A stretch of 64,000 nucleotides of DNA from Bacteroidia bacterium (GCA_044337585.1 JBIINH010000001.1:9087-73086); one strand, 5' to 3'; positions 8,970 through 43,515 are shown, numbered from the stretch's first letter. Numbers and translations: made by a program. The notes: generated by a model from the letters alone, not told the origin.

Positions 8970-9484
8970 AAAGCATTGTGCTTCGCCCGCCTTCAGGCTT
9001 GCCGGTTAGGCCAACCACTGATAGAGCCAAAGAAAGTTTGTTTAATATTCTCGAAAATCAATTTGATATTTCAGCATTATCTGTTTTAGATATTTTTTCT
9101 GGAACTGGAAACATCAGTTATGAGTTTTGCTCTCGTGGTGCCAAACAAGTTATTGCTGTTGATATTCATTCAGGTTGCATTCAGTATATAAAAGAGGTAA
9201 AACAAAAACATTTGTTAAACCAACTATCGGTGTGTAGGAAGGATGCTTTTACATATCTTAATCAATGTGAACAAAACCAGTTTGATATCATTTTCGCTGA
9301 TGCACCTTATGCACTGCATCGCATTTTGGACATTCCAAGCATTGTTTTAAATAAGCAACTACTCAAATCCAATGGCTTACTTATAATTGAACATGATACC
9401 AATTTGGAAATGCAACTACAAATCGGTTTTTTTGATAAAAGAACCTATGGTCAATCTGCCTTTTCTTTTTTCAGATTTTCGTAA
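8945..9484 (+). CDS. rsmD: 16S rRNA (guanine966-N2)-methyltransferase RsmD
   Basis: N-terminus MRIISG...K is typical of RsmD. SAM-binding motif (LDIFSGTGNISYE) and DPPY-like motif (FADAPYA). Confidence 0.85.
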   Translation: MRIISGSLKSIVLRPPSGLPVRPTTDRAKESLFNILENQFDISALSVLDIFSGTGNISYEFCSRGAKQVIAVDIHSGCIQYIKEVKQKHLLNQLSVCRKDAFTYLNQCEQNQFDIIFADAPYALHRILDIPSIVLNKQLLKSNGLLIIEHDTNLEMQLQIGFFDKRTYGQSAFSFFRFS

Positions 9485-9496
9485 ACGCATATAACT

Positions 9497-9967
9497 ATGA
9501 CAGCACCCATCAGACGCAAAGCACTATTTCCAGGCACATTTGATCCGATTACGGTTGGACACGTTAATATCATAGAACGGGCTATGAACTTATTTGACGA
9601 AATAGTGGTGGGTATAGGAAAAAACAGCAGCAAAGCTACCTTGTTTCCACTAGAAAAACGTGAGCAATGGATTCGAGATATTTTTAAAGCCCATACCAAA
9701 GTAAGTGTAGCTACATACGATGGATTAACTGTAGACTTCTGCAGAGAGATAGGGGCGAATTTTGTCTTACGTGGCCTGCGCAATATGGCCGATTTTGATT
9801 ATGAAAAAAACATTGCCCAAATGAATAAGCTGGTTTATAATGAGGCGGAAACTGTTTTCTTAATGTGCGACCCAGCATATACCCCAATAAGCTCATCAGT
9901 TGTTCGCGACCTTATTCGCAACAATGGAAGTATTGAGGGATTTGTGCCCAAAGAAGTAAAACTGTAA
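9497..9967 (+). CDS. coaD: phosphopantetheine adenylyltransferase
   Basis: N-terminal nucleotidyltransferase motif GTFDPITVGH. 156 aa, the typical CoaD length. Confidence 0.9.
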   Translation: MTAPIRRKALFPGTFDPITVGHVNIIERAMNLFDEIVVGIGKNSSKATLFPLEKREQWIRDIFKAHTKVSVATYDGLTVDFCREIGANFVLRGLRNMADFDYEKNIAQMNKLVYNEAETVFLMCDPAYTPISSSVVRDLIRNNGSIEGFVPKEVKL

Positions 9968-17872: not shown

Positions 17873-19879
17873 CTACAACTGAACCCTATTTTTTTTGTAA
17901 AAAAGGTCCATACTTAATACATGTGGAATGCTGATGCAAGAAAGTAGAATAAAGAAAATGCTAATATAATCTGCACGGTTTAGCAACATAAATGCAACGA
18001 TTATAAATGCACCACCCATGCTAAATGGAAGCGATTTTTTCCAAAGTTGATACGTATTGGTTTTTAATGCTGTTTTTAAATGGCTCCATCCATGAAAGCT
18101 GTGTTGAATAACAAAGTATATGCCAAATGAAACTAGTAATGGCAACATACTTGAAATAAGGAGGTAGCTGAAAGTTAGAGCCATGCGCTTAGACTTATTG
18201 TAAACAATCATCAATATTGAAAGCATAGAAACGATAAGTTTCGAATACAATATTATTGGTTGGGTTAATGTTTGTAAATAGGTGTTAAGTTTCAAACCTT
18301 TTATGTGTTCAAGAACTGAAAGTGTTTCTTCGAAATGGAAAATCAAAATGAGCGCAAGCACCGATAGTCCCCACAAAAAAGAATTAGGGCCTTGTTTTAA
18401 ATTCCACTCATTGGTATCAGCTTGTCCGAAATGCCAAGCCGAGTATGCAATAAATGTAATTAATGCCAAATCGGGTAGGATAAACCAAATAGCGCCTAAC
18501 AAAGCGCCTTTGGCAAGATAGGCTGCAATAAATTTGATAAATTGCCTCTGCCCGTTAATTTTCTGATCGGTTAAATGATCAACTGCACCATGTGATAAAC
18601 CAATTGTTAAAAAGCCCAAACCTAAGAAAATCCAAAGTACTTCTTGCCATTGATTTATGTGCAAAAACAAAGATGCGAGTGTGAAGAGAAGTGCAGCTAA
18701 AGTGGGGGTGAGTGCAGATATTTTGTAGCTCACATCTTTTACTGCGGTTTTTAAAAAAAGTGCGATAGGGAGTTTCGAAAAAATATGAATCTCGTTAGGT
18801 ATACTTGTTTTTTCATTTAAAAAAGTGAGAACCTTAGAGATGGGAATATTTGTGAATAAGCATTGAAAAATTTCTTTGCCTCGGCTGGGTGATAATTCTA
18901 AAATTTTAAGTAATAACCTATCGTAGAATTTAAATCTAGAAATACGATTATTGCGTTTATATAATTCTCCTTTTTGGATTGCCTCGGCTAGGCTTTTAGC
19001 ATCTTTAGCCATAGCATGAAAAGCATATCCAGTTGAGGGTTTTATCATATTTGCTTTTGCACCCGTATATAACCAATTTGCTCCATAATGATTATTGGCT
19101 ATTGTTGCCGAAGACATTGGAACCACACCTATCTCTTTGTCTAAAATAGTATAGTTGATTCCCAATTTTTGGATATACTCTTTAAATATGATTTCGGCAT
19201 CATGCTTGGAGATAATCTCTTTACCAAATCTAGTAATTTCAAATAGCGCAGTGCGATCTGTGAATGGGAGTATATACATAAATTGGCATGCATCATTTTG
19301 TGCAATGTCAAAATCCATCATCGTTGCTGTGCTAGTATCAAATTCAGCATTTGTTGTTTGAATTTCCCAACCATAAAAAGATTGGTACAAATGGCTTTGG
19401 TTGTTTTTAGGTGGAGAAAATATAGGTGGTCGGCTGTCGAATACTTTTTGGGCAATTATTTTGTCATTTCCTACATCAACCTGATATGAGTTGTTGTTGA
19501 GTATGTTTGGTTCGTTGCTAAGTGAGGTTGTGTAGAATTGAGTTGTTTCCTTCTTTAGGATTTCTTTGGCTTTGTTGTATAAATCTATTCCCTTGATATG
19601 GAAATAATTTAGGGGAGTGATGTGCTGTTTCAAGCCATTCACGTTAATGTGGCTCCATGATGAACTGATGAGTTGTTGAAGATTTAGTTCAGATACTTCT
19701 TCTTCACTTGTCCAGAAACAGAAGGTTCTGTCATTTACATTTTTGCTACTAGGTTCAATTACAGCAATCTTTTTATCCTTCAATAGGCCTTTTTCAAACA
19801 AGTTAAGCAACAACAAAGAATTGGCTGCTCCTAATCCAATAAATAGGAAGTCAACTTCGATGTTCATATTACTTTTCAT
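17873..19879 (-). CDS. fusion protein with an N-terminal CrtY-type lycopene beta-cyclase domain and a C-terminal Brp/Blh beta-carotene 15,15'-dioxygenase domain
   Basis: N-terminal about 380 aa has the FAD/Rossmann motif DFLFIGLGAANSLLL and the CrtY blocks (DRTFCFW, QFMYILPF...LFEITRF, KPSTGYAF). C-terminal about 290 aa is a 7-TM domain with conserved His residues (GAVDH, WHFGQAD, QHSFHGWSH) typical of Blh. It is one uninterrupted 668-aa ORF. Confidence 0.8.
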   Translation of the reverse strand: MKSNMNIEVDFLFIGLGAANSLLLLNLFEKGLLKDKKIAVIEPSSKNVNDRTFCFWTSEEEVSELNLQQLISSSWSHINVNGLKQHITPLNYFHIKGIDLYNKAKEILKKETTQFYTTSLSNEPNILNNNSYQVDVGNDKIIAQKVFDSRPPIFSPPKNNQSHLYQSFYGWEIQTTNAEFDTSTATMMDFDIAQNDACQFMYILPFTDRTALFEITRFGKEIISKHDAEIIFKEYIQKLGINYTILDKEIGVVPMSSATIANNHYGANWLYTGAKANMIKPSTGYAFHAMAKDAKSLAEAIQKGELYKRNNRISRFKFYDRLLLKILELSPSRGKEIFQCLFTNIPISKVLTFLNEKTSIPNEIHIFSKLPIALFLKTAVKDVSYKISALTPTLAALLFTLASLFLHINQWQEVLWIFLGLGFLTIGLSHGAVDHLTDQKINGQRQFIKFIAAYLAKGALLGAIWFILPDLALITFIAYSAWHFGQADTNEWNLKQGPNSFLWGLSVLALILIFHFEETLSVLEHIKGLKLNTYLQTLTQPIILYSKLIVSMLSILMIVYNKSKRMALTFSYLLISSMLPLLVSFGIYFVIQHSFHGWSHLKTALKTNTYQLWKKSLPFSMGGAFIIVAFMLLNRADYISIFFILLSCISIPHVLSMDLFYKKNRVQL

Positions 19880-19896
19880 GATTGTAGTGTTAGTTT

Positions 19897-19935
19897 AAAA
19901 AAAGAAGACACCTGTTATAATAAACAGATGTCTTC
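19897..19935 (-). terminator. rho-independent terminator downstream of the rhodopsin gene
   Basis: On the minus strand: 12-bp stem (gaagacatctgt/acaggtgtcttc, one mismatch), 8-nt loop, then a TTTTTTT run. It sits between the rhodopsin stop (19957) and the crtY-blh start (19879). Confidence 0.55.
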
Positions 19936-19956
19936 TTCAATTTCTTTTGTAAAGGA

Positions 19957-20673
19957 TTAGTCTTCAGTTCTGCTTAAAGCATAAATTACTAAACCAAAAC
20001 CAATTTTGTTAATGGCATCTGCAATATTGTAAACGATGTCCATAGCTTTGAGTGCTGCAGTAGTATCTGATACTAATTGCATTCCAAATAATCCACCTGG
20101 AGTTCCCAAAATGTAACCTAGTGGATAAATAGCCCATCCCACTAGAACAAACCATCCTAAAATCTTGGTTGCTTTGGCTACTTGTGCACCTGCATTTTGC
20201 GAAAGTTGCGCAACTTCTCCAAACCATACCAAATAAACAATGTAGAAATAAGCGATACCAGATAAAACTCCCCACAATACACTTCCGTCTCTGTCTAAAA
20301 CTTCACCTACATAACCAGTAACCAACATCACAAGTGATGCAAAAATAAGTTTCCATAATAACCCAATCTTAGCACCCGCTTTTTTGGTGATTAAATAAAA
20401 CTCAACACACATTAATGGCACTGTCAATATCCAATCTACATAACGGAAGAAGGTTGGAGAATCACCAGTTTCTAAATTGTAACCTCTCATGTAGTAGTAA
20501 TGTACTGCTGCGATAAAGGTAATAAGTCCAGAAACAAGGACTGAAGTGCGCCATTTTTGAGAAGTGTTGCCTAACTCAAAAAAGAAGAATACAGATGCGG
20601 CCATCATGGCCATAGTTCCGATAAAAAATGTGAATGCCACATAATTATCACTAGCGATTTTTAAGTGTTCCAT
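19957..20673 (-). CDS. microbial rhodopsin, proteorhodopsin/xanthorhodopsin-type light-driven proton pump
   Basis: Seven-TM protein. Helix C reads RYVDWILTVPLMCVEFYL, giving Asp proton acceptor, Thr, Glu proton donor (DTE motif) and Met at the position-105 tuning site. Helix G carries the Schiff-base Lys in DAINKIGFGL. Confidence 0.9.
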   Translation of the reverse strand: MEHLKIASDNYVAFTFFIGTMAMMAASVFFFFELGNTSQKWRTSVLVSGLITFIAAVHYYYMRGYNLETGDSPTFFRYVDWILTVPLMCVEFYLITKKAGAKIGLLWKLIFASLVMLVTGYVGEVLDRDGSVLWGVLSGIAYFYIVYLVWFGEVAQLSQNAGAQVAKATKILGWFVLVGWAIYPLGYILGTPGGLFGMQLVSDTTAALKAMDIVYNIADAINKIGFGLVIYALSRTED

Positions 20674-20992
20674 GTTTATTTGTTTAATTATTGTTACGAA
20701 GACTTGAACAAGATGAGTTCTTTAAAAGTTTTTATATTTTGTTTGTTTAAGACATATTATTTTTGTTTAATTAAACTTAAACAGTCTCTAAAGGCTTGTT
20801 ATTCCTGATAGTTTACTGTTTTTTATTCACAGGTTAACTTTTATTTAATCAAAAAATTTAAGTTAGTTTTAATGTGCAAAATAAAAATGATATTAGGTTT
20901 AGTTAATAATATAGGACAGACTTTAACCTCTTTTTTAAGTCTATTTATAAGGAAAAAGAAGCAGACGTGGGTTGTAAAGTAAATTTGTAACT

Positions 20993-21922
20993 TTAGCTAT
21001 TCGTCTGTGTATGTTTATCTGTATTTTTATAGGAATTGTGTATGAGCAATATTAAGTACCCAAATACAACTGCACTAATTATGAGTGCATTATTAATTAA
21101 TCCTTCCACCGAAAATGACAATTTGATCAGTATTGTAGAGATGACAAAGCCTGAATTACGAATGATGGTATGAAAACTGTCTGAATAGAAAAATGAAAAC
21201 AAAAGCAATAGCACATCAATGATGATTAGGAGAATAAAAAAGTCTTCAAAAAATACATTGTTGATGTACTTAAATGTGGTGATATCGTTCCAATTGCTTT
21301 GATTACTTATAATAATCCATTGTGCAAACGAGTATAAAGCAAGGATGATAACTATAGGTATCAATACTTTTGCAATGATATTCTTCAGTTGTATAAATGT
21401 GCCAATTCGTAGCTTTTCAACTTCGCTTTTGTTTGTGCTGCTGTTCAGTGAGAATTTCTCGAGGTTGCGGTAAAATTGTTGAATTAAGAAAAATAGAATA
21501 ATGGCCGTTGCCAAATCATAGGTAAACTGAAGGTCATTTTGAAGATTAAACCAGTTGGAAGACATTTCAATATTCCCAATGTCTTTGAAAATTCTACGGA
21601 TTACTATGAGGGTGATGATTTCGTATTGCTTACCTATGTATGTAGAGGTGGATTTTGGTAAATAATAAACCAAAAGAAAAACTTCATAAACAAGAATAAA
21701 AGAGAAAGGGGTGTAAACAGCAGATATTGGATTTTTAGTGAGTTTGGAATTAAGGTGAATGATATCTTCGCTTACCAAAAAAATTACAGATAAGTGTAAG
21801 AGAAAACTGATTATTGCAATCCAAATTGTGGTTTGCTCTAGTTTTTCCCTGAACTTGTCAGTAAGTAAATGATTGAAAATATTTAGCATTTTTATCAAAC
21901 TAATCCATTTCGGATTAATCAC
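20993..21922 (-). CDS. polytopic membrane protein of unknown function (about 8 TM)
   Basis: 309 aa, very hydrophobic, with no recognisable channel or transporter signature. It lies directly upstream of, and co-directional with, the rhodopsin gene. Confidence 0.5.
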   Translation of the reverse strand: MINPKWISLIKMLNIFNHLLTDKFREKLEQTTIWIAIISFLLHLSVIFLVSEDIIHLNSKLTKNPISAVYTPFSFILVYEVFLLVYYLPKSTSTYIGKQYEIITLIVIRRIFKDIGNIEMSSNWFNLQNDLQFTYDLATAIILFFLIQQFYRNLEKFSLNSSTNKSEVEKLRIGTFIQLKNIIAKVLIPIVIILALYSFAQWIIISNQSNWNDITTFKYINNVFFEDFFILLIIIDVLLLLFSFFYSDSFHTIIRNSGFVISTILIKLSFSVEGLINNALIISAVVFGYLILLIHNSYKNTDKHTQTNS

Positions 21923-22038: not shown

Positions 22039-22749
22039 TTACAATGTATTCAGCAGCTGTTCCATCATTTTGCCGTTCCACTTGCCATGAAACTTGTAAG
22101 GAACAAATCGGGCAAACATTTCCTCATTATACCAATTGAGTTTTCGGGTGAGTTGCACAACTTCCTTATGATGTTGATTTTTATAGGCATAATCCATCAT
22201 TTCTGCTTTAGTCTTCCATACGCTTAAGGTTGCTTGCTGTATCAAAGGCCATTCGCCCACACCAATGGATAATACTAGTCCCGTGTAATTTTCTAAGCTT
22301 TTACTCACTTTGCCCACTTTGCTCCAAAACGAAAGCAGTTTCGAGAAACGGATTGTGGCCCTTGTTAAAACCATTACAGGTTTATCTGCTACCAATTGGG
22401 CAGATTGCTCGAAAGGTTGCATTCCATCCCATTTGCCATGTACCTCAGCTGCTTGAGCATAAACCGTAAAATATTCTGTACTTTTTGATTGGTATTTTTT
22501 TAAGTAGTTTTTTGTAGTTAAAAATTGATTAGCTGCTTCTTCAGATTTCCAAACACACAACAAAACGTAAGTGCCAAAGTTGGGTATTGCACTAAATCCA
22601 TTCTTTGCTCCGGAGCCTAATAATTTATAGAAAACCAATCCATCTGCTCCCTTTATAGATTTGTGGCCGAATTGCATTTGGGTAAATGCCCACAATTTAT
22701 TTCTCAAACCCTCTAATTTAAAGAATGTACAGGTTGTAATTTGATTCAT
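22039..22749 (-). CDS. CrtA-like (spheroidene monooxygenase / carotenoid 2-hydroxylase-like) protein, tentative
   Basis: 236 aa. The N-terminal pattern (TCTFFKLEGLRNKLWAFTQMQFG...FYKLLGSG) recalls the CrtA/CrtA-OH family. Assignment is from memory of the family, not from a search. Confidence 0.4.
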   Translation of the reverse strand: MNQITTCTFFKLEGLRNKLWAFTQMQFGHKSIKGADGLVFYKLLGSGAKNGFSAIPNFGTYVLLCVWKSEEAANQFLTTKNYLKKYQSKSTEYFTVYAQAAEVHGKWDGMQPFEQSAQLVADKPVMVLTRATIRFSKLLSFWSKVGKVSKSLENYTGLVLSIGVGEWPLIQQATLSVWKTKAEMMDYAYKNQHHKEVVQLTRKLNWYNEEMFARFVPYKFHGKWNGKMMEQLLNTL

Positions 22750-22796: not shown

Positions 22797-23717
22797 TTAT
22801 TTTTTTTCTACCACAATGAGTTGGATACCGAATGGTAACAATTTTTCGAAAACAAATAGGGGTATTGTATATACCTTACGGAATACAAGTGGCCAAAATT
22901 CTTTTTCCATATTTCCCGACCAATTGATGCTTTTTTTCTCCATTATTCCCAACCACCATAGGGTAAAGGCGTCTAATGTTCCCAGCCGTAAGTATTTCAC
23001 AATATTCCATTTCTTTTTGTCAAACAAAACTTCAAAACTCTTTTGAGAAAATAAGGATAAGTGACGTGGACTATGCCAACCTTGCCAATATTGTTTTTGT
23101 ATTTTAGCAGTAAGGCTCTTGTAATCGGGAACTTCGATTATTAGTTTGCCCCCAGGTTCCAATAAGCCATATAGTTTTTCAATAGTTTCTATTGGTTGGT
23201 AATCATGCTCCAAATAATGCCATAGCGTAATGATATCGAATTTATTTATTGTGTCAAATGCTTCGATTGACGAATTGACTAACGTGATGTTTTCTACTTT
23301 TTTATTTTCCCATCCTGCATCCGAAAAATCAATTCCGGTACATGAAAAGTTAAGTTGTTTTTGCAAAACTTCTAAAAATGTGGGATTACCACAACCCACA
23401 TCTAAAATACGCACCTGTTTATTATTTGCGCCAACCCATCTTTTTACAAAGCGAACCCGTCTGATATCAAGTTGCTTTTGGCTTTTATCAACAAAGGAAG
23501 CGAACTTTCCCCATGCTTTCGATCCTTTATAAGGTAGATAGTTTTCGGTATAGTAAGTGGCTAAATTTTTTTCTGAAACAGGATTGGATAAAAATACCAA
23601 TTCGCATTGATTGCATTTATAAAAATGATACTGTTCATTATTTTTTTTGTGCATTAATGCACTGGTTGTAATATAAAATGAAGCACCGGCTTGATTACAA
23701 ATAGGGCAGCTAAACAT
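22797..23717 (-). CDS. class I SAM-dependent methyltransferase with N-terminal zinc ribbon
   Basis: CxxC...CxxC N-terminal zinc ribbon. SAM motif I (ILDVGCGNPTF) and a Methyltransf_13-like C-terminal region. Confidence 0.7.
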   Translation of the reverse strand: MFSCPICNQAGASFYITTSALMHKKNNEQYHFYKCNQCELVFLSNPVSEKNLATYYTENYLPYKGSKAWGKFASFVDKSQKQLDIRRVRFVKRWVGANNKQVRILDVGCGNPTFLEVLQKQLNFSCTGIDFSDAGWENKKVENITLVNSSIEAFDTINKFDIITLWHYLEHDYQPIETIEKLYGLLEPGGKLIIEVPDYKSLTAKIQKQYWQGWHSPRHLSLFSQKSFEVLFDKKKWNIVKYLRLGTLDAFTLWWLGIMEKKSINWSGNMEKEFWPLVFRKVYTIPLFVFEKLLPFGIQLIVVEKK

Positions 23718-36496: not shown

Positions 36497-38113
36497 TCAG
36501 AAACTTACGGCAAGACCACCCAATATGTTAAATCCATATACTGGAAGTGCGAACCAACGTTGGTATTTGTTGTTGGTAAGATTATTTAGGTTCAAAAACA
36601 AGGCAACTGTTTTGGAATAGCGGTACTCAATGCCAATGTTTAAATCCACAAAACTATTGATTGATGCTTCTACATTGGAATTATTCAATTGAACGGTTCT
36701 TTTATCCCATGTAAAGGCTTCGCCACGCAACAAAAATTTATTGGAAATATTGTATAATAAATTCGTGCTGGTGGTAAAAGTTGGTCTTGAAAATGGTGCA
36801 CTGATTGACAAATCGTAACCGTAATAATTGGCTGTGAATCCCAAATGGAAATGCTCGTAAAACTCATGGTTAAGTTCGGCAGTAAACTTAAATAGGCCAG
36901 CAGATGAGTTGTCATACACGGTGTATTGACTCGCCAATGAACTATCAGAGCCGTAGAATAACATATTTTGTATGGTTGACCATGATGTGCGAACCAAGAA
37001 AGATGTTTGTGCACTAATCAATCCCCTGAAACCAATAAAAGATTCAAACTGATTTAAGGTATTTTCTAATGACAACCCGCGCACAAAAGCATTTTCTGTG
37101 GTAATGCTTCTTAAGGTATTGCGTTGCAGGTTTCCAGTAATTCCTCCAAACACAGTAAGCGAACGAGGGATGATTTGATAAGCCACATCAGCTACTGGGA
37201 AAAAATGATATTTGAGTCCGTTTGAGTCGTTAAAGAAAGTAGAATTAAAGCCGAGGTTGAGGTTGAATTTGCTACTTATATTAAGAGAATAATTTGGATT
37301 TACATCAACAAACACCCTGTTGTAATTGAGTGTAGGTGTATTGGTATTATTTTGCTGAATTGCAGTATAAACATTAAGCGGATTGCCTTGAATGCTCTTC
37401 CTAAAATCACCCGACAAGATAAAGTCATTTTCGTCTATATCACGATTAGTGGAGTAGTTGTAGTATTTCAATCCAATTTTATACATCAATTTACTTGTGT
37501 CTTTTTGCACATTACCATATGCAGCACCAAGTTGAAACAATCCAAATTCATTGCGAAGTAAATCCGCATTGGATGTTATATCTGTTGGTTTTGCTCCGTA
37601 AAGATTAACAACATTTCGGTGATATAAGAAATCACTTTCCACCACTCCTTTGTCTACAAAACGTTTAGCATATACACCGGCAGTGTTGTTGCTAAACTGT
37701 TGGAGGTTTTCGGCATCGGCTGACAAGTGTTTATAGAATGCACCCAGTTGGTAATTCTTATTTCGTTTGGAGTTGAGGTAGATTTCTGCCAAAGGCATGC
37801 TGTAATTTCCAAACCCAAGTCGGGTGTAGTTGTTTTTAATTTTTGGCAACAAAGCCGTACCCAACGACAATGGTTTGATGGTATAAATAGTTGGGATATC
37901 GTTGTGCTTTATTTCTGGTAATTTGTATGAAAATTCAGGTTTGCGCACCTCCGGTATTTCTGGATTTGGATTGCTTTGAATTTTAATTGACTCACTTAAT
38001 GTAGCCTTAAAAGGTTTGATCACATCAATGATATCAGTCCTAAGGGTATCGGTTTGTGCATGCACCACAGTCGATAAAATCATAAATATTGCAAGTGTTA
38101 ATGATATTCTCAT
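36497..38113 (-). CDS. putative outer-membrane beta-barrel protein
   Basis: Signal peptide, amphipathic beta-strands and a C-terminal Phe. Conserved partner of the adjacent large TPR protein. Confidence 0.5.
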   Translation of the reverse strand: MRISLTLAIFMILSTVVHAQTDTLRTDIIDVIKPFKATLSESIKIQSNPNPEIPEVRKPEFSYKLPEIKHNDIPTIYTIKPLSLGTALLPKIKNNYTRLGFGNYSMPLAEIYLNSKRNKNYQLGAFYKHLSADAENLQQFSNNTAGVYAKRFVDKGVVESDFLYHRNVVNLYGAKPTDITSNADLLRNEFGLFQLGAAYGNVQKDTSKLMYKIGLKYYNYSTNRDIDENDFILSGDFRKSIQGNPLNVYTAIQQNNTNTPTLNYNRVFVDVNPNYSLNISSKFNLNLGFNSTFFNDSNGLKYHFFPVADVAYQIIPRSLTVFGGITGNLQRNTLRSITTENAFVRGLSLENTLNQFESFIGFRGLISAQTSFLVRTSWSTIQNMLFYGSDSSLASQYTVYDNSSAGLFKFTAELNHEFYEHFHLGFTANYYGYDLSISAPFSRPTFTTSTNLLYNISNKFLLRGEAFTWDKRTVQLNNSNVEASINSFVDLNIGIEYRYSKTVALFLNLNNLTNNKYQRWFALPVYGFNILGGLAVSF

Positions 38114-38120
38114 GGGTATA

Positions 38121-41100
38121 TTAATTATCAGATGGAGCTATTTTTTTATTTGAAGCTTCTTCAGAAGCAATAATTACTTTGAGTTTTTCGGATGCAATTG
38201 ATTTCACATCTTCACCGTCATAGTTTTCTAAAATACTTTGCAGGGTGGCTTTGGCTTGGAAATTATCTTTTTCAGCTACATACACGTCAGCCAAAAGTAA
38301 GTATGATTTTGCAACCCAATATTCGTGTACAGATAGGTTATCTGCAATATCAAAAATTGTTTTCTTGCATGCCTTTAAGTCTTTACGTAGGTATTGTATA
38401 AATGCAATTTGGTATTTCGATTCAGCCGCCCATATATTTTTGGTTTCTTTCGCCACAAACTGATAGTCAATCATTGCCGAATCAATCTGATTGCGTGATT
38501 GATAGAACCTTGCCATGTTTAAGCGGGCTTCAATAATTCCATCTTTTTGCGTTACGGTGGAGTTTAAATAACGAATGGAAGCCGCAGCTGCAGCTTCGGT
38601 ATTCCCTAATTGGGCTGCCGATTTAATTTGACCAGTTAAGGCAATGCTTAAGTTATCGCGGTTGCTGGCAATGCGCTCAAGGGAAGCGTAATTATCGAGT
38701 GCTTTCGCAAAATTCTTTTTCATATAATACAATACGGCCGTTTGTCTGGTAGACTTCTCTGTAAATTCATTTCTGTTTTGTAATGAAACGAACTCATAGC
38801 AAACCAAGGCACTATCATAATTTTTTAAGCTGAAATCACATTCTGCTTTATAGTAATTGGCACGTAAAATAAAAAAGCCTCCAGGGAAACGGTTTATATA
38901 GTTACCAAAAAGTTTGCTTGATTTATTGCAATCACCCGATTTGTATGCATTAAATGCCGACTCATATGTTATTGAATCTTGGTATGTAGGTGATAGCTCT
39001 ACATTTGGCAATACTTTTACATATTCCAAATAGCCATCGGCATCTGAGTTTGATACAAAAATATTTTTCGCTACCATCAATGCATCTCTTGCTTCAGGTG
39101 TGTTTGGATATTCGGTAATCAGTTGTTTGAAAACCTCTAATGCTTCTTTGTCACGATTGGTATTATAATAGCACAAGCCTTTGTTTTGAATGGCTTTACG
39201 CAAGTATTGGCTTCTTGGGTAGTTATCAATAATATTTTGGTAACCTGTTATGGCATCATTGAAACGTTCACTTTGCATTTTAACTAAAGAAATTTCATAA
39301 ACAGCATCATCGATATAGGTTGATTTTTTGTATTGGTTTATGATCACCGAGAGCATGGCTATTTTATCATCTGGCCTATTTAAAACCCCATAAATCGTGG
39401 CTTTTTGATATAATGCATAGTCGCTGCCATTCAAATTTTTTTCTGTAATAAAGCTGTATTGGTCAAGTGCTTTTTGATATTGCCTAAGCACCAAATAGCA
39501 ATCAGCAATACGCATATTGGCATCGGTATAAATTTCAATATTGTTTAAGGCATATTCTGTTGCTGTAAATTTTTTCATTTCGGAAATACAATTGTCATAA
39601 TCTTCTACTTTTAGGTGGCTATAGGCCATATTGTAAAATGACAGTGGGTAGAAACGAGTATCTTTTACCTCAGGATATTTTTGGAAGTTTTTGTACAAAC
39701 GAATGCTCTCAGCAAATTGTCCTTCACGAAAAGCGATTTCAGCAAGCCAAAAAGAAGCAAGTGCATATAGTTTTTTATCCAATTCATACAATTGCGATTT
39801 CGTGAAGGTTGATTTGGCGCCTACGTAATCATTATTTAAATATAATTCTTCGGCTCGGTAATAACAAACACGCTGGTAAGCAAGCTGGGTGGTTGTATTT
39901 GGTTTGTTGATGCTTTCGATTATTGGAATGGCATCTTTATAGTTTTTGGTTGCCGTAAGCAAATCAGACATCATGCTTTTTGCTTCATCAATTATATCAG
40001 AAGAAGAATAATCATTTACAAACTTTACCAAGTCTTTTAGTGCTTCTTGTTGAAACGATAATTCGAAAGAAAGTTTTGCATGATTAAACAAAGACAACTC
40101 TGTAACTTGTGAATTAAATCCATTGTGATAAGCTCTATCGAATGCCAATCGGGCAGCTTGCTTTTGATTTGTAGCCAAGTAAGCTTCGGCCAAGTGATAG
40201 CTTGCAAACTGCGAAGTGGAATCTTTTTCTATTGCAATTTTACTAAGATATTCAATTGCTTTTGCATGATCACCTACTCGTAAGTATGAATAACCTAGCC
40301 TATATATATCTTGGTTTGTTTTTCCATTAGGCGATTTGCTATGAAACCTTTCTAGGAATGGCAAGGCTTTATTATAATTGCCAAGTTGAAAGTAAGACTG
40401 ACCCACAATACCAGCAACGTCATTTACTATTTCTTTATTGGTAATGGTATCGGCAAAGCTTACCACATCAACATATTTTTTCTGGGCAAAATAAATCTGC
40501 GCAATATATACCTGTGATAGTCCACCAAAGATTTTGTTTTTTCCTACTTTTGTAAAGTGCTCCAATGCCTGTTCATACTTACCTTCACGGTAAATGATGT
40601 ATCCATAATAATAGTTGGCACTTTCTAAATATTTATTCGGGTTGTCAATGATATTTCCGAGACTTTTCTTTGCATTTTCAAAATCATCTAATTTAAAATA
40701 GCAATATCCTTTGATAAAAAACATATGCTCCGCTTGTTCAGGAGTAAGGTCTTCGGCACCTACTAGTGAAAGGTATTTTACAGCATTTTTATTGTCTTTG
40801 AGTCGATAAAAATATTTGCCTAGTTGAAAAAGAGCAGGTTTTGATTTTGAGTGGTCGGTATATTGGGTACCAACCTTAAGCAATAAATTTACGGCATCAG
40901 GGTTGAGCAACTCCATGGCACAAACACCTGCAAAATAGTAGGCATTAATTTTCATCTCTCGCTCGGTCGTCCGTTCGGCAAACATGATGAAATGTTTTTG
41001 CGCCTCTCCAAACATATCATGGTTGTAAAGTTCGGTAGCCCGATTGTAAATGCGTTGGTTATTTGCATACACCTCACTTTTTTGCGCAAATGAAAGTGTA

Positions 41101-41153
41101 GTGAGCAAGCAAAACAATATTGTGATGGTAAATTTGTGAATCTGATTTCGCAT
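38121..41153 (-). CDS. tetratricopeptide-repeat protein (about 1010 aa, secreted)
   Basis: Signal peptide and multiple TPR-like helical repeats throughout. Confidence 0.8.
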   Translation of the reverse strand: MRNQIHKFTITILFCLLTTLSFAQKSEVYANNQRIYNRATELYNHDMFGEAQKHFIMFAERTTEREMKINAYYFAGVCAMELLNPDAVNLLLKVGTQYTDHSKSKPALFQLGKYFYRLKDNKNAVKYLSLVGAEDLTPEQAEHMFFIKGYCYFKLDDFENAKKSLGNIIDNPNKYLESANYYYGYIIYREGKYEQALEHFTKVGKNKIFGGLSQVYIAQIYFAQKKYVDVVSFADTITNKEIVNDVAGIVGQSYFQLGNYNKALPFLERFHSKSPNGKTNQDIYRLGYSYLRVGDHAKAIEYLSKIAIEKDSTSQFASYHLAEAYLATNQKQAARLAFDRAYHNGFNSQVTELSLFNHAKLSFELSFQQEALKDLVKFVNDYSSSDIIDEAKSMMSDLLTATKNYKDAIPIIESINKPNTTTQLAYQRVCYYRAEELYLNNDYVGAKSTFTKSQLYELDKKLYALASFWLAEIAFREGQFAESIRLYKNFQKYPEVKDTRFYPLSFYNMAYSHLKVEDYDNCISEMKKFTATEYALNNIEIYTDANMRIADCYLVLRQYQKALDQYSFITEKNLNGSDYALYQKATIYGVLNRPDDKIAMLSVIINQYKKSTYIDDAVYEISLVKMQSERFNDAITGYQNIIDNYPRSQYLRKAIQNKGLCYYNTNRDKEALEVFKQLITEYPNTPEARDALMVAKNIFVSNSDADGYLEYVKVLPNVELSPTYQDSITYESAFNAYKSGDCNKSSKLFGNYINRFPGGFFILRANYYKAECDFSLKNYDSALVCYEFVSLQNRNEFTEKSTRQTAVLYYMKKNFAKALDNYASLERIASNRDNLSIALTGQIKSAAQLGNTEAAAAASIRYLNSTVTQKDGIIEARLNMARFYQSRNQIDSAMIDYQFVAKETKNIWAAESKYQIAFIQYLRKDLKACKKTIFDIADNLSVHEYWVAKSYLLLADVYVAEKDNFQAKATLQSILENYDGEDVKSIASEKLKVIIASEEASNKKIAPSDN

Positions 41154-41208
41154 GGGTTTTGGAGCGTTAACTGATTGATTAACGTCAAAGCTATATGCAG
41201 AACGATTT

Positions 41209-43515
41209 TTAGAAGGAATAATTTATCCCCACTGTTGGCATTATTGGAAGTTGATCTATCCTTCGGTAATTAACCCTATCGAAATAAAAGATGTTGGCAC
41301 GGTTGTAAACGTTGGTACACGCGACAGTGATCATAAGAATGCGTGTTTCAGAGAATGTTATTTTTTTAGACAGTGAAACATCCAGACGGTGGAAAGTTGG
41401 TAGTCTTCCGGTATTGATGTCAGTAAAATATGGAGTTAATGTACCGTTGGTTGAAAGTGGATTGGATGATACACCTTGGTTGAAAGGTATTTGTTCATAA
41501 AATCCTTGCGTTTGTGTAAACGGAAAACCCGAACCAAAATTCCATCTACTATTAAAGTTCCAAGAGTTTTTCTTGCCAAAAGCAATCGTGCCGACTAAAT
41601 TGATATTATGTCTTCTGTCAAAATTGGGGAAGTAATTTCTTGTTCCATCAAAACGATTGACGTAGGTTAACGAATAAACTGCCCAGATATAAAATCTTTT
41701 GTAATCATATTTATAAAGCACGTCAAGTCCATATGCATCCCCATTTTCTACAATATAGCTTACTCTTTCTAATTCGGGTTTATTTCGGTTTTCAAAAGTG
41801 TTCTCATATTTCTTGTCACGGTTGATATTGGTTAGCTGGGTAAATTTTTTGTAGTAACTCTCTACACTTAACATACCGTGCAACCCGATGTCGAATTCAA
41901 CACCACCAATTGCGTGCCAAGCAGTTTGCATACGGTAGGTTACAGGTTGGCCATTAAACGTGCTTGAAAGGTCGTTTTCCGGACTGCTTAAGAAGCCATA
42001 AAACAAGTTCACCACATCTTGGTCAGACACGGCACTCATTAAGTTTTGTGAGTAGGTACCAATTGAACCAATAATACGCATATAATCTTTGGCATTCCAT
42101 TTTACAGCAAGACGAGGCTCTACAGAAATATCGCCAATGGAAGCATAATACTGAATGCGAACACCTGGATCAAATACAAACCTGCCTGCTACTTTTTTAT
42201 ATTTTAAAAATCCATTCAGTTCGGTTGAGTTTTCATTCTGACTTAGCTTTAACCCGAAAGGATTGTAATATTCAAAAGAAGTGTTGAAACCATTAATTTC
42301 AAATCCGTATTTTATATCATCTTTTCCGATGATATTGGTAAAATTGAGGGCAATATTAAAACCACCTATTCCGCTACTTCTTGGCAATCCATCATTTTCA
42401 ATTTGCTCCATATTATAGTTGGAGTAGTTAACTGTACCATTTATAAGTGTTGAGCCTTCAGGTATTAAAAAGAAACTGCTGCCAAAACCATATGAGTTCC
42501 AATTATATTTGGTTTGAGGATAATTTACCTTGTCATTAAAATTAAATCCGAATAAATTAATTTTACTACCACCGGAACCAATTTTTGAGAATTTGGCATA
42601 AATATCATTAAACGAAAAAGGCAATCCGTTGTAAATATTATCAGGGTCGGCATATGGATAAAATGTTTGAGAAGTACGATCAAGATATGATGTTTTGTAA
42701 GAAATTATAAATGAAGAGCTCCCCCCATCTGAGAATTTACTTAATGGACCTTCAAGTAAAAACTTAGAAGCAATGGTGGATACATTTACTTTACCAGAAA
42801 GTCGTTTTTTATTTCCTTCTCGAGTTGATACGTCAATAATTGATCCAATACGTCCGCCATATTGTGCACCAAATCCCCCAGCATATACATCAGCTGTTCG
42901 TATGATATCTGCATCAAAAACTGAAAATAAACCAATAGAATGGAATGGGTTATAAATGGTCATCCCATCAATCATTACTTTGTTTTGCACGGGTGGTCCA
43001 CCTCGTAAGTATAATTGGCCACCTTGGTCTCCACTAAATACGGCCCCGGGTATTACTTGTAGGTATTGGGCTAGATCAGGTTCACCACCAAAGCTTGGCA
43101 ATTGCTTAAGGTCTTTGTTGGTAATGGTTATATTTGAAACCTTTGCATCGTATTTCTTTTTATCCCGCTCTCCTCTGATTTCTACTTCCTCTAATTGTTT
43201 CGAAATACGTGTGAGGTAAAAGTTTTGTTTAACAATTTGGTCTTCTTTTAGGTTGATCGTAAATTTAGCTGAGTCATATCCAAGGGCATAGCAACGCAGC
43301 ACATACGTTCCTGGTCTAAGTTTGGTGAGCGCATAAAATCCATTGACATCGGTAGCCATTCCAATCTTTGTACCCTCTAGGTAAACAGGAGTATAAATTA
43401 CCGGTTCACCACTTTCTTTGTCATAAACAAAGCCCCTTATTTCTCCGTTGTTTTGAGCCAAAAGCACACAACTTTGTAGTAATATATATATTAATGTAGA
43501 ATATTTTTTTAGCAT
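41209..43515 (-). CDS. TonB-dependent receptor with N-terminal CarboxypepD_reg domain
   Basis: Signal peptide, CarboxypepD_reg-like beta-sandwich, plug domain, 22-strand barrel region and a terminal aromatic residue (..INYSF). Confidence 0.85.
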   Translation of the reverse strand: MLKKYSTLIYILLQSCVLLAQNNGEIRGFVYDKESGEPVIYTPVYLEGTKIGMATDVNGFYALTKLRPGTYVLRCYALGYDSAKFTINLKEDQIVKQNFYLTRISKQLEEVEIRGERDKKKYDAKVSNITITNKDLKQLPSFGGEPDLAQYLQVIPGAVFSGDQGGQLYLRGGPPVQNKVMIDGMTIYNPFHSIGLFSVFDADIIRTADVYAGGFGAQYGGRIGSIIDVSTREGNKKRLSGKVNVSTIASKFLLEGPLSKFSDGGSSSFIISYKTSYLDRTSQTFYPYADPDNIYNGLPFSFNDIYAKFSKIGSGGSKINLFGFNFNDKVNYPQTKYNWNSYGFGSSFFLIPEGSTLINGTVNYSNYNMEQIENDGLPRSSGIGGFNIALNFTNIIGKDDIKYGFEINGFNTSFEYYNPFGLKLSQNENSTELNGFLKYKKVAGRFVFDPGVRIQYYASIGDISVEPRLAVKWNAKDYMRIIGSIGTYSQNLMSAVSDQDVVNLFYGFLSSPENDLSSTFNGQPVTYRMQTAWHAIGGVEFDIGLHGMLSVESYYKKFTQLTNINRDKKYENTFENRNKPELERVSYIVENGDAYGLDVLYKYDYKRFYIWAVYSLTYVNRFDGTRNYFPNFDRRHNINLVGTIAFGKKNSWNFNSRWNFGSGFPFTQTQGFYEQIPFNQGVSSNPLSTNGTLTPYFTDINTGRLPTFHRLDVSLSKKITFSETRILMITVACTNVYNRANIFYFDRVNYRRIDQLPIMPTVGINYSF

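Follow-up and report, generated by a model that had tools for sequence, protein, structure and literature searches.

Proteorhodopsin (PR) phototrophy is usually seen as minimal, consisting of an opsin and the retinal-forming enzyme Blh, and it is in this form that it is used in ecology and synthetic biology. Here, we analyzed 64,000 nucleotides of a Bacteroidia bacterium (GCA_044337585.1 JBIINH010000001.1:9087-73086; this whole stretch is hereafter called the window), in which a gene for a membrane protein lies directly upstream of a rhodopsin gene. TM8 is our working name for the protein of this open reading frame (ORF; 20993-21922, minus strand) and for its family. The ORF had been proposed in an earlier reading of the DNA alone (the sequence-only reading) and was found exactly as described there. 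Our results reveal that TM8 is a recurrent member of loose light-gene neighborhoods in Bacteroidota, like other genes of a light-exposed lifestyle.

Several described systems come close to this situation. Blh/Brp (PF15461), CruF/DUF422 (PF04240), and CrtYcd are polytopic, hydrophobic proteins of seven to eight helices found in or beside rhodopsin-carotenoid clusters, as is TM8. Unlike these proteins, TM8 shows no sequence match to any of them, lacks the His clusters of Blh, and carries no recognizable catalytic motif. An identity as Blh, CruF, or lycopene cyclase was rejected after none of 89 diverse TM8 members matched these families; the Blh and CrtY domains of the neighboring gene in the window were readily picked up by Pfam. 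A second point of comparison is the set of orthologue groups enriched in PR-bearing (PR+) marine Flavobacteriia, which includes rhodopsin, blh, DUF2237, photolyase, photolyase-related protein, flavin reductase, and spheroidene monooxygenase together with 14 unannotated groups (Kumagai et al. 2018, PMC5932025, supplementary file 5). TM8 may be one of these 14, and spheroidene monooxygenase is the class of the CrtA-like neighbor of TM8 in the window. DUF2237 and other groups of unknown function on this list resemble TM8 in their loose, nonobligate tie to rhodopsin and light genes. However, DUF2237 is small, soluble, spread over many phyla, and covered by a Pfam entry, whereas TM8 is polytopic, essentially limited to Bacteroidota, and has no entry. 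DUF2237 is enriched in PR+ genomes (PMC5932025); for TM8, the tie is one of gene proximity.

Linkage between TM8 and rhodopsin was assessed in two directions. The forward sample comprised 80 genome loci centered on TM8, taken from at least 546 relatives, and the reverse sample comprised 80 metagenome loci centered on rhodopsins 81-95% identical to the window opsin. Rhodopsin and blh were located within 10 kb of TM8 in 7 of the 80 forward loci. Conversely, TM8 was present in 5 of the 80 rhodopsin loci, and all five belong to the 33 loci that extend at least 3 kb to each side. By comparison, blh and crtY were found in 46 and 45 of these 80 loci, respectively. Under a chance model with flanks of 1.18 and 0.80 Mb, which assumes that both genes occur in every genome, 0.16-0.39 co-locations are expected per set, and the observed numbers were about 20-fold higher in the two samples. 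The Poisson P for co-location ranged from 1e-4, when only distinct arrangements were counted, to 1e-8. The linkage is not random.

The linked loci differ in their gene order. The window has crtA-like > TM8 > PR > crtY-blh. Elsewhere, TM8 is followed after 6.6 kb by PR > crtY-blh > crtA-like (L003), precedes PR by 426 bp (L118), or heads the order TM8 > crtY-blh > PR (L162). In three further arrangements it lies on the same strand closely 3' of blh or crtY-blh, namely behind PR > crtY-blh with an ORF gap of 46 bp (L017), behind PR > crtY > blh with an ORF gap of 53 bp (L158), and behind PR > blh with about 62 bp between the tblastn matches (L110). TM8 is divergent from PR at a distance of 1.4 kb in L122 and convergent with blh < PR at about 76 bp in L034, L043, L049, and L054; L044 has the latter orientation at 2.6 kb. 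About 10 different arrangements were thus seen, and across lineages the TM8 proteins of linked loci share 28-78% identity. Because the arrangements differ and the linked proteins are this diverged, the association is judged to have been formed or kept many times across the family. An unbiased Pfam census of the neighborhoods gave a similar picture. Among the 119 immediate (±1) neighbors, no family exceeded five members, and BCD/blh, with four, was tied second; among the 109 ORFs at ±2, Bac_rhodopsin, with five, was the most frequent of 139 families. The other recurrent neighbors are single-lineage synteny blocks. An ATP-binding cassette (ABC) exporter cluster occurring in 16 of the 80 TM8 loci was considered as a partner and treated as background because its distance and order vary and the family is rich in paralogues.

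The proximity extends beyond rhodopsin, and other light-associated genes also recur beside TM8 where rhodopsin is absent. In L027, a DUF2237 gene (PF09996, E 1e-55; 9272-9649) lies upstream of TM8 on the same strand at a distance of 319 bp, and another is near TM8 in L010 (8764-9141). L045 and L047 encode a DPRP photolyase-related protein about 155-160 bp upstream of TM8, and L003 and L016 encode one within 3.5 kb of it; FAD_binding_7 photolyase-like and flavin-reductase-like proteins are encoded near TM8 in L003, L016, and L045. The three-gene set of FAD_binding_7, DPRP, and flavin-reductase-like genes spans 6452-9816 in L045, 11107-16492 in L003, and 4105-7866 in L016. Near rhodopsin, the set is complete in L162 and partial in L089, L117, and L136. 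Photolyase-like genes are near rhodopsin in 7/80 loci and TM8 is near rhodopsin in 5/80, a similar frequency. In total, 12 of the 80 TM8 loci hold at least one light-associated gene, where about 0.2-0.4 are expected per gene class per set. TM8 therefore lies near rhodopsin, blh, photolyase-family, and DUF2237 genes more often than chance allows, which is our operational definition of the light set.

The same counts can be read differently. TM8 could be a housekeeping membrane protein unrelated to light, with its adjacency to opsin genes incidental, for instance through shared variable regions of the genome. No linkage was present in 73 of the 80 TM8 loci or in 75 of the 80 rhodopsin loci, and the neighborhoods are otherwise lineage-specific, with 2-oxoacid dehydrogenase genes in Flavobacterium and sulfur-transport genes in marine Flavobacteriaceae. 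The 319-bp spacer between TM8 and the opsin gene and the absence of a shared upstream motif also fit independent units. However, an incidental neighbor would not be expected to show a co-location about 20-fold over chance in two independent samples, many arrangements involving diverged TM8 members, short-gap, same-strand placements behind blh or crtY-blh, and linkage to two further classes of light-associated genes. We consider this explanation unlikely, though with an appreciable share of the probability. The sequence-only reading had proposed to ask whether homologues elsewhere also sit beside opsin or blh, and had named a lack of conserved linkage as the result that would speak against a partnership. 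The answer is divided: seven of the 80 TM8 loci are linked, the linked loci overall show about 10 arrangements, and co-location is far above chance, but the great majority are unlinked. TM8 is not an obligate, syntenic rhodopsin partner, because about 90% of its members have no opsin within 10 kb. A hint that the two genes may co-occur at the level of whole genomes is that PR-bearing isolates related to Flavobacterium frigoris have been reported (PMC5061748), whereas the TM8 of Flavobacterium frigoris itself (L013) is away from any opsin.

Counted from a GTG codon, the ORF translates in the window to the 309 aa reported by the sequence-only reading. TM8 homologues are mostly 291-297 aa long, and their alignment begins at an internal Met at 21889. 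Gene callers applied to four independent metagenome assemblies from this organism give the identical TM8 a length of 298 aa (P0001), and homologues show no conservation of the 11 residues that a start at the upstream GTG would add. Because the homologues align from this Met and P0001 was called as 298 aa, translation probably begins with the ATG at 21889, which places the coding sequence (CDS) at 20993-21889. The ORF therefore stands, whereas its protein is likely 11 residues shorter than first described. The placement relative to the opsin gene, co-oriented and separated from it only by the opsin leader, also held: the two genes share a strand, and TM8 lies 319 bp upstream of the opsin start.

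We judge TM8 to be a genuine gene under selection, and not an ORF that arose by chance, because its conservation spans at least 7983 clusters at 90% identity and 832 at 50% identity. The former were obtained in a word-indexed search in which 7983 of 8000 scored candidates were significant, and the latter are representative clusters from an exhaustive profile search, of which 513 reached E ≤ 1e-10. With few exceptions, members are standalone proteins of 290-320 aa without extra domains. Named hosts are Bacteroidota and include Flavobacterium, Pedobacter, Halpernia, Algoriphagus, Winogradskyella, Roseivirga, Chitinophagales, Saprospiraceae, and Cytophagales, and the family is essentially confined to this phylum, in aerobic and mostly aquatic and soil organisms. 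TM8 genes 54-70% identical to the query were also found on metagenome-assembled genomes labeled Bifidobacteriaceae, Sphingomonadales, and Verrucomicrobia (L021, L042, and L069, respectively); these are most likely mis-binned Bacteroidota contigs.

No known family could be assigned to TM8, whose family the sequence-only reading had called unrecognizable by eye. The window protein had no match in Pfam-A 2025, and among the 89 diverse members no Pfam family was common to more than 4, with those matches weak and unrelated. NCBIfam r20 returned noise only, PADLOC and PHROGs returned nothing consistent, and PDB sequences searched with TM8 family profiles gave no match at E ≤ 10. The mundane outcomes of a profile search that the sequence-only reading had named as refuting, such as a CPBP protease or an acyltransferase, did not materialize; both were rejected for want of a Pfam match, and the EExxxR and His motifs of CPBP are absent. 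A K+ channel or P-loop ATPase was rejected likewise, with the selectivity filter and Walker A motif absent and no E1-E2_ATPase or Ion_trans match. One homologue, P0037 of Pedobacter sp. UYEF25, is labeled "cation transport ATPase"; we regard this label as an annotation error because 294 aa is too small for a P-type ATPase and ATPase motifs are missing. A search of the literature yielded no earlier account of such a membrane protein beside rhodopsin.

The structure was modeled with AlphaFold2. With an input alignment of the 89 diverse sequences, the model reached a predicted local distance difference test (pLDDT) score of 92.8 and a predicted template modeling (pTM) score of 0.88; an earlier run with a shallow alignment of 31 close homologues reached a pLDDT of 59 and was discarded. 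The model contains eight long helices, at residues 11-40, 54-75, 81-104, 117-150, 156-197, 204-235, 239-258, and 264-297 (transmembrane helices TM1 to TM8), and the residues A, I, L, M, F, V, W, and C make up 49% of the protein, with I, L, and F together at 39%. TM8 is thus an eight-helix membrane protein, which agrees with the earlier description of a very hydrophobic protein with about eight helices. The structural comparison suggested in the sequence-only reading was carried out with Foldseek on this model and returned no relative. Against the PDB, the best hit had E 0.57 at a TM-score of about 0.2, without a full-length fold match, and BFVD, a viral fold library, gave a best E of 0.24 and no fold relative. 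The best-probability match in the viral library (probability 0.51) was YhhN/TMEM86 lysoplasmalogenase, a lipid hydrolase that, like TM8, has eight transmembrane helices. Unlike a true relative, it aligns at a TM-score of only 0.32-0.37 with E 0.63, below fold-level similarity, and TM8 has no PF07947 match. TM8 is new to annotation, with no assignable family and apparently no solved fold relative; a new mechanism is not implied.

According to the positive-inside rule, K and R residues number 14 in cytoplasmic versus 5 in periplasmic segments, and this charge distribution puts both predicted termini and the long loop between helices 4 and 5 in the cytoplasm. Conservation reaches at least 90% across the 89 diverse sequences at H32, T60-P61-F62, L66, E69, S80, Q88, L94, R98, F101, K169, L176, F213, F218, R244-N245, F248, and T252. 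The best conserved block of the family is LIVIRRIFKDIG, at the periplasmic end of TM3, which includes R98 and F101; it is the short basic helix noted in the sequence-only reading. TM3 and TM7 are both the most conserved and the least hydrophobic helices. E69 and R98 are near-invariant, D225 and K/R256 are present in the majority of members, and all four are located within otherwise hydrophobic helices.

These buried charges raise the question of an ion transporter or channel, or of a carrier coupled to the proton-motive force, in which the charged residues of TM2/3 and TM6/7 would use or balance the gradient made by the pump. The low hydrophobicity of TM3 and TM7 would suit such a role as well. 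However, no channel or transporter signature or family match was found in any library searched, no internal repeat of the secondary-transporter kind was detected, and adjacent acid-base pairs may be merely structural salt bridges. Regular-expression scans of TM8 for T[VIL]G[YF]G, GYG, Walker A, a His-box, and the CPBP motif (EExxxR plus His) were negative, which bears out the earlier remark that the protein has no transporter or channel signature. By these searches, TM8 is not a recognizable channel, transporter, or carotenoid enzyme, and we regard a transport function as quite improbable. An internal 4+4 duplication was also considered and rejected: despite a visual resemblance between TM2/3 and TM6/7, aligning one half with the other in HHalign returned a probability of only 0.6%.

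A different function is suggested by the phosphate-starvation-inducible protein PsiE (PF06146), for which we know of no biochemical function. PsiE, like TM8, is a small helical inner-membrane module in which one helix bears an acidic residue and the following helix an Arg, and it shares an FHxxxR..T...R motif with the C-terminal half of TM8; unlike TM8, it has four helices rather than eight. TM8 could accordingly be a tandem-duplicated PsiE-like stress protein whose halves are remote PsiE homologues, serving a response to starvation and not to light. Three PsiE profiles were compared, from E. coli psiE alone, from shallow close homologues, and from a diverse 17-sequence alignment including 12 plasmid genes. 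A single register, FHxxxR-x7-T-x3-[RK], aligned the end of TM6 and TM7 of TM8 with the end of TM2 and TM3 of PsiE in every comparison, and the pairwise HHalign E for the C-terminal half fell from 0.06 to 0.04 to 0.004 as the profile diversified. Even so, the diverse alignment (pairwise E 0.004 over 59 columns) reached a probability of 8.4%, the maximum obtained, and the N-terminal half matched nothing in the PsiE alignment. Scans reported no PF06146 match at E ≤ 0.1 among the 89 members in full length, nor at E ≤ 10 among 10 C-terminal halves. Because PF06146 reports no C-terminal half and the N- and C-terminal halves do not match each other in HHalign, TM8 was not filed under PsiE; the similarity is seen by eye but is not statistically supported, and we hold this origin to be very improbable.

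The genes around TM8 in the window form a minus-strand block in the order methyltransferase, CrtA-like, TM8, rhodopsin, and CrtY::Blh, separated by gaps of 47, 149, 319, and 77 bp, respectively (Table 1). The opsin contains, in RYVDWILTVPLMCVE, what we read from the sequence as a D-T-E proton-pump motif. The residue equivalent to position 105 of green proteorhodopsin is Met, which we take to suggest a green-absorbing pump. Close relatives of this opsin (81-95% identity) are plentiful in metagenomes from freshwater and elsewhere, and crtY adjoins rhodopsin in 45 of the 80 loci of this opsin clade. The same CrtY-Blh fusion, at 670-672 aa, occurs in the related loci L003, L017, and L122. The CrtA-like gene, which is also found 3' of blh in L003, may form a carotenoid-tailoring pair with the methyltransferase gene at its 47-bp gap; the methyltransferase additionally has a weak, below-cut-off match to an N-terminal zinc ribbon.

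Table 1. Features of the rhodopsin locus in the window
Feature	Position	Strand	Evidence
SAM-dependent (S-adenosylmethionine) methyltransferase (Methyltransf_23), upstream of the CrtA-like gene	22797..23717	-	PF13489 E 1.9e-24
CrtA-like protein (spheroidene-monooxygenase-like), 236 aa, upstream of TM8	22039..22749	-	NF045923 E 1.2e-63 (below curated cut-off), PF11695 DUF3291
11-codon N-terminal extension of TM8 from GTG, probably untranslated	21890..21922	-	homologue alignment; gene callers choose ATG
Probable TM8 CDS, 298 aa + stop, eight-helix inner-membrane protein	20993..21889	-	ORF, homologue alignment, P0001, AlphaFold model
Codons for LIVIRRIFKDIG, residues 94-105, end of TM3, most conserved motif	21575..21610	-	family alignment
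TM8-rhodopsin spacer, 319 bp, 23% GC	20674..20992	-	sequence
Proteorhodopsin-type opsin, 238 aa, DTE motif	19957..20673	-	PF01036 E 9.7e-42
16-bp hairpin + U7 between rhodopsin and crtY-blh	19894..19938	-	free energy (dG) -22.1 kcal/mol, z -5.6, 0/200 shuffles fold as well
CrtY-Blh fusion, lycopene cyclase + beta-carotene 15,15'-dioxygenase, 668 aa, makes retinal	17873..19879	-	PF05834 E 2e-43, PF15461 E 4e-34, TIGR03753

The sequence-only reading had left open an unrelated neighbor or a rhodopsin partner, such as a transducer, a channel, or a carotenoid-handling protein. The nature of this opsin bears on the transducer proposal, which we took to mean a protein that passes on the signal of a sensory rhodopsin, as the haloarchaeal Htr proteins do. 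HtrI and HtrII resemble TM8 in being membrane proteins encoded beside an opsin gene, and adjacency and co-orientation with the opsin gene are all that speaks for the proposal. Unlike TM8, with its eight helices and pump-type opsin, they have two helices and long HAMP/MCP domains and partner a sensory rhodopsin. TM8 is almost wholly membrane-embedded, without HAMP, MCP, or any other cytoplasmic domain, the opsin belongs to a pump-type operon with retinal synthesis genes, and most TM8 members are not beside any opsin. We reject the transducer, to which we give next to no probability, because the opsin is pump-type and TM8 lacks a signaling domain.

Regulatory features of the block were examined as well. 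A consensus scan missed the hairpin between rhodopsin and crtY-blh, which was detected by folding with shuffled controls. This hairpin probably acts as an intrinsic terminator or attenuator, and it would let the opsin far outexpress the retinal enzymes. The spacer 3' of TM8 holds no terminator-like hairpin, and transcription could therefore continue from TM8 into the opsin gene. In the gaps upstream of TM8 and rhodopsin, the exact Bacteroidota -7 motif TAnnTTTG was absent, and a sigma-70 scan was at background level. Farther along the window, about 20 co-directional, tightly packed ORFs occupy the plus strand at 43514-63933, preceded by a three-gene minus-strand block at 36497-43515 with ORFs of 538, 1010, and 768 aa.

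Taken with the linkage data, these results lead us to favor a functional tie of TM8 to light and rhodopsin, as an accessory membrane protein of a light-exposed lifestyle. We put this forward tentatively, at somewhat short of an even chance, and several observations weigh against it. About 85-90% of TM8 members have no light-related gene within 10 kb, and no neighbor is conserved across the whole family. Since the linked loci are not phylogenetically independent, with L034, L043, L049, and L054, for example, representing one arrangement, the independent linkage events number about 8-10 and not 17. Clustering could stem from common regulation, or from a mobile or variable region that the genes have in common, and not from a common function. 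Within the window, no operator-like upstream motif is common to TM8, rhodopsin, and the methyltransferase gene, and the length and AT-richness of the spacer upstream of rhodopsin suggest that rhodopsin has its own promoter. A polar core in TM8, considered below, rests on conservation and helix hydrophobicity, and the sequence identifies no ligand for it.

As an accessory protein of light-exposed cells, TM8 would be co-expressed with light-response genes and would work in the same membrane as the pump. The two most conserved and least hydrophobic helix pairs, TM2/TM3 (E69, R98) and TM6/TM7 (D225, K/R256), joined by H32 and R244-N245, could form a polar, aromatic-lined core, and this core might bind or pass a small ligand. 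We would favor a membrane-soluble isoprenoid or lipid as the ligand over ion conduction. The role could then be to supply retinal or carotenoid to the opsin or to protect the illuminated membrane. Our confidence in this mechanism is low. A more specific version would make TM8 the third component of the Bacteroidota proteorhodopsin photosystem, with a previously undescribed fold, required if the holo-pump is to form efficiently or to be protected; TM8 might, for instance, hand retinal or an antenna carotenoid over from Blh/CrtY to the opsin. Such a role would explain the repeated attachment of TM8 to the end of PR-crtY-blh operons, but we consider it improbable.

As a protein repeatedly and independently recruited to these operons, TM8 is a candidate for a missing accessory function: it may help to supply the chromophore, load an antenna, protect against light, or exploit the gradient. 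Thousands of proteins now listed as hypothetical in Bacteroidota of water and soil would gain an annotation if the family were defined.

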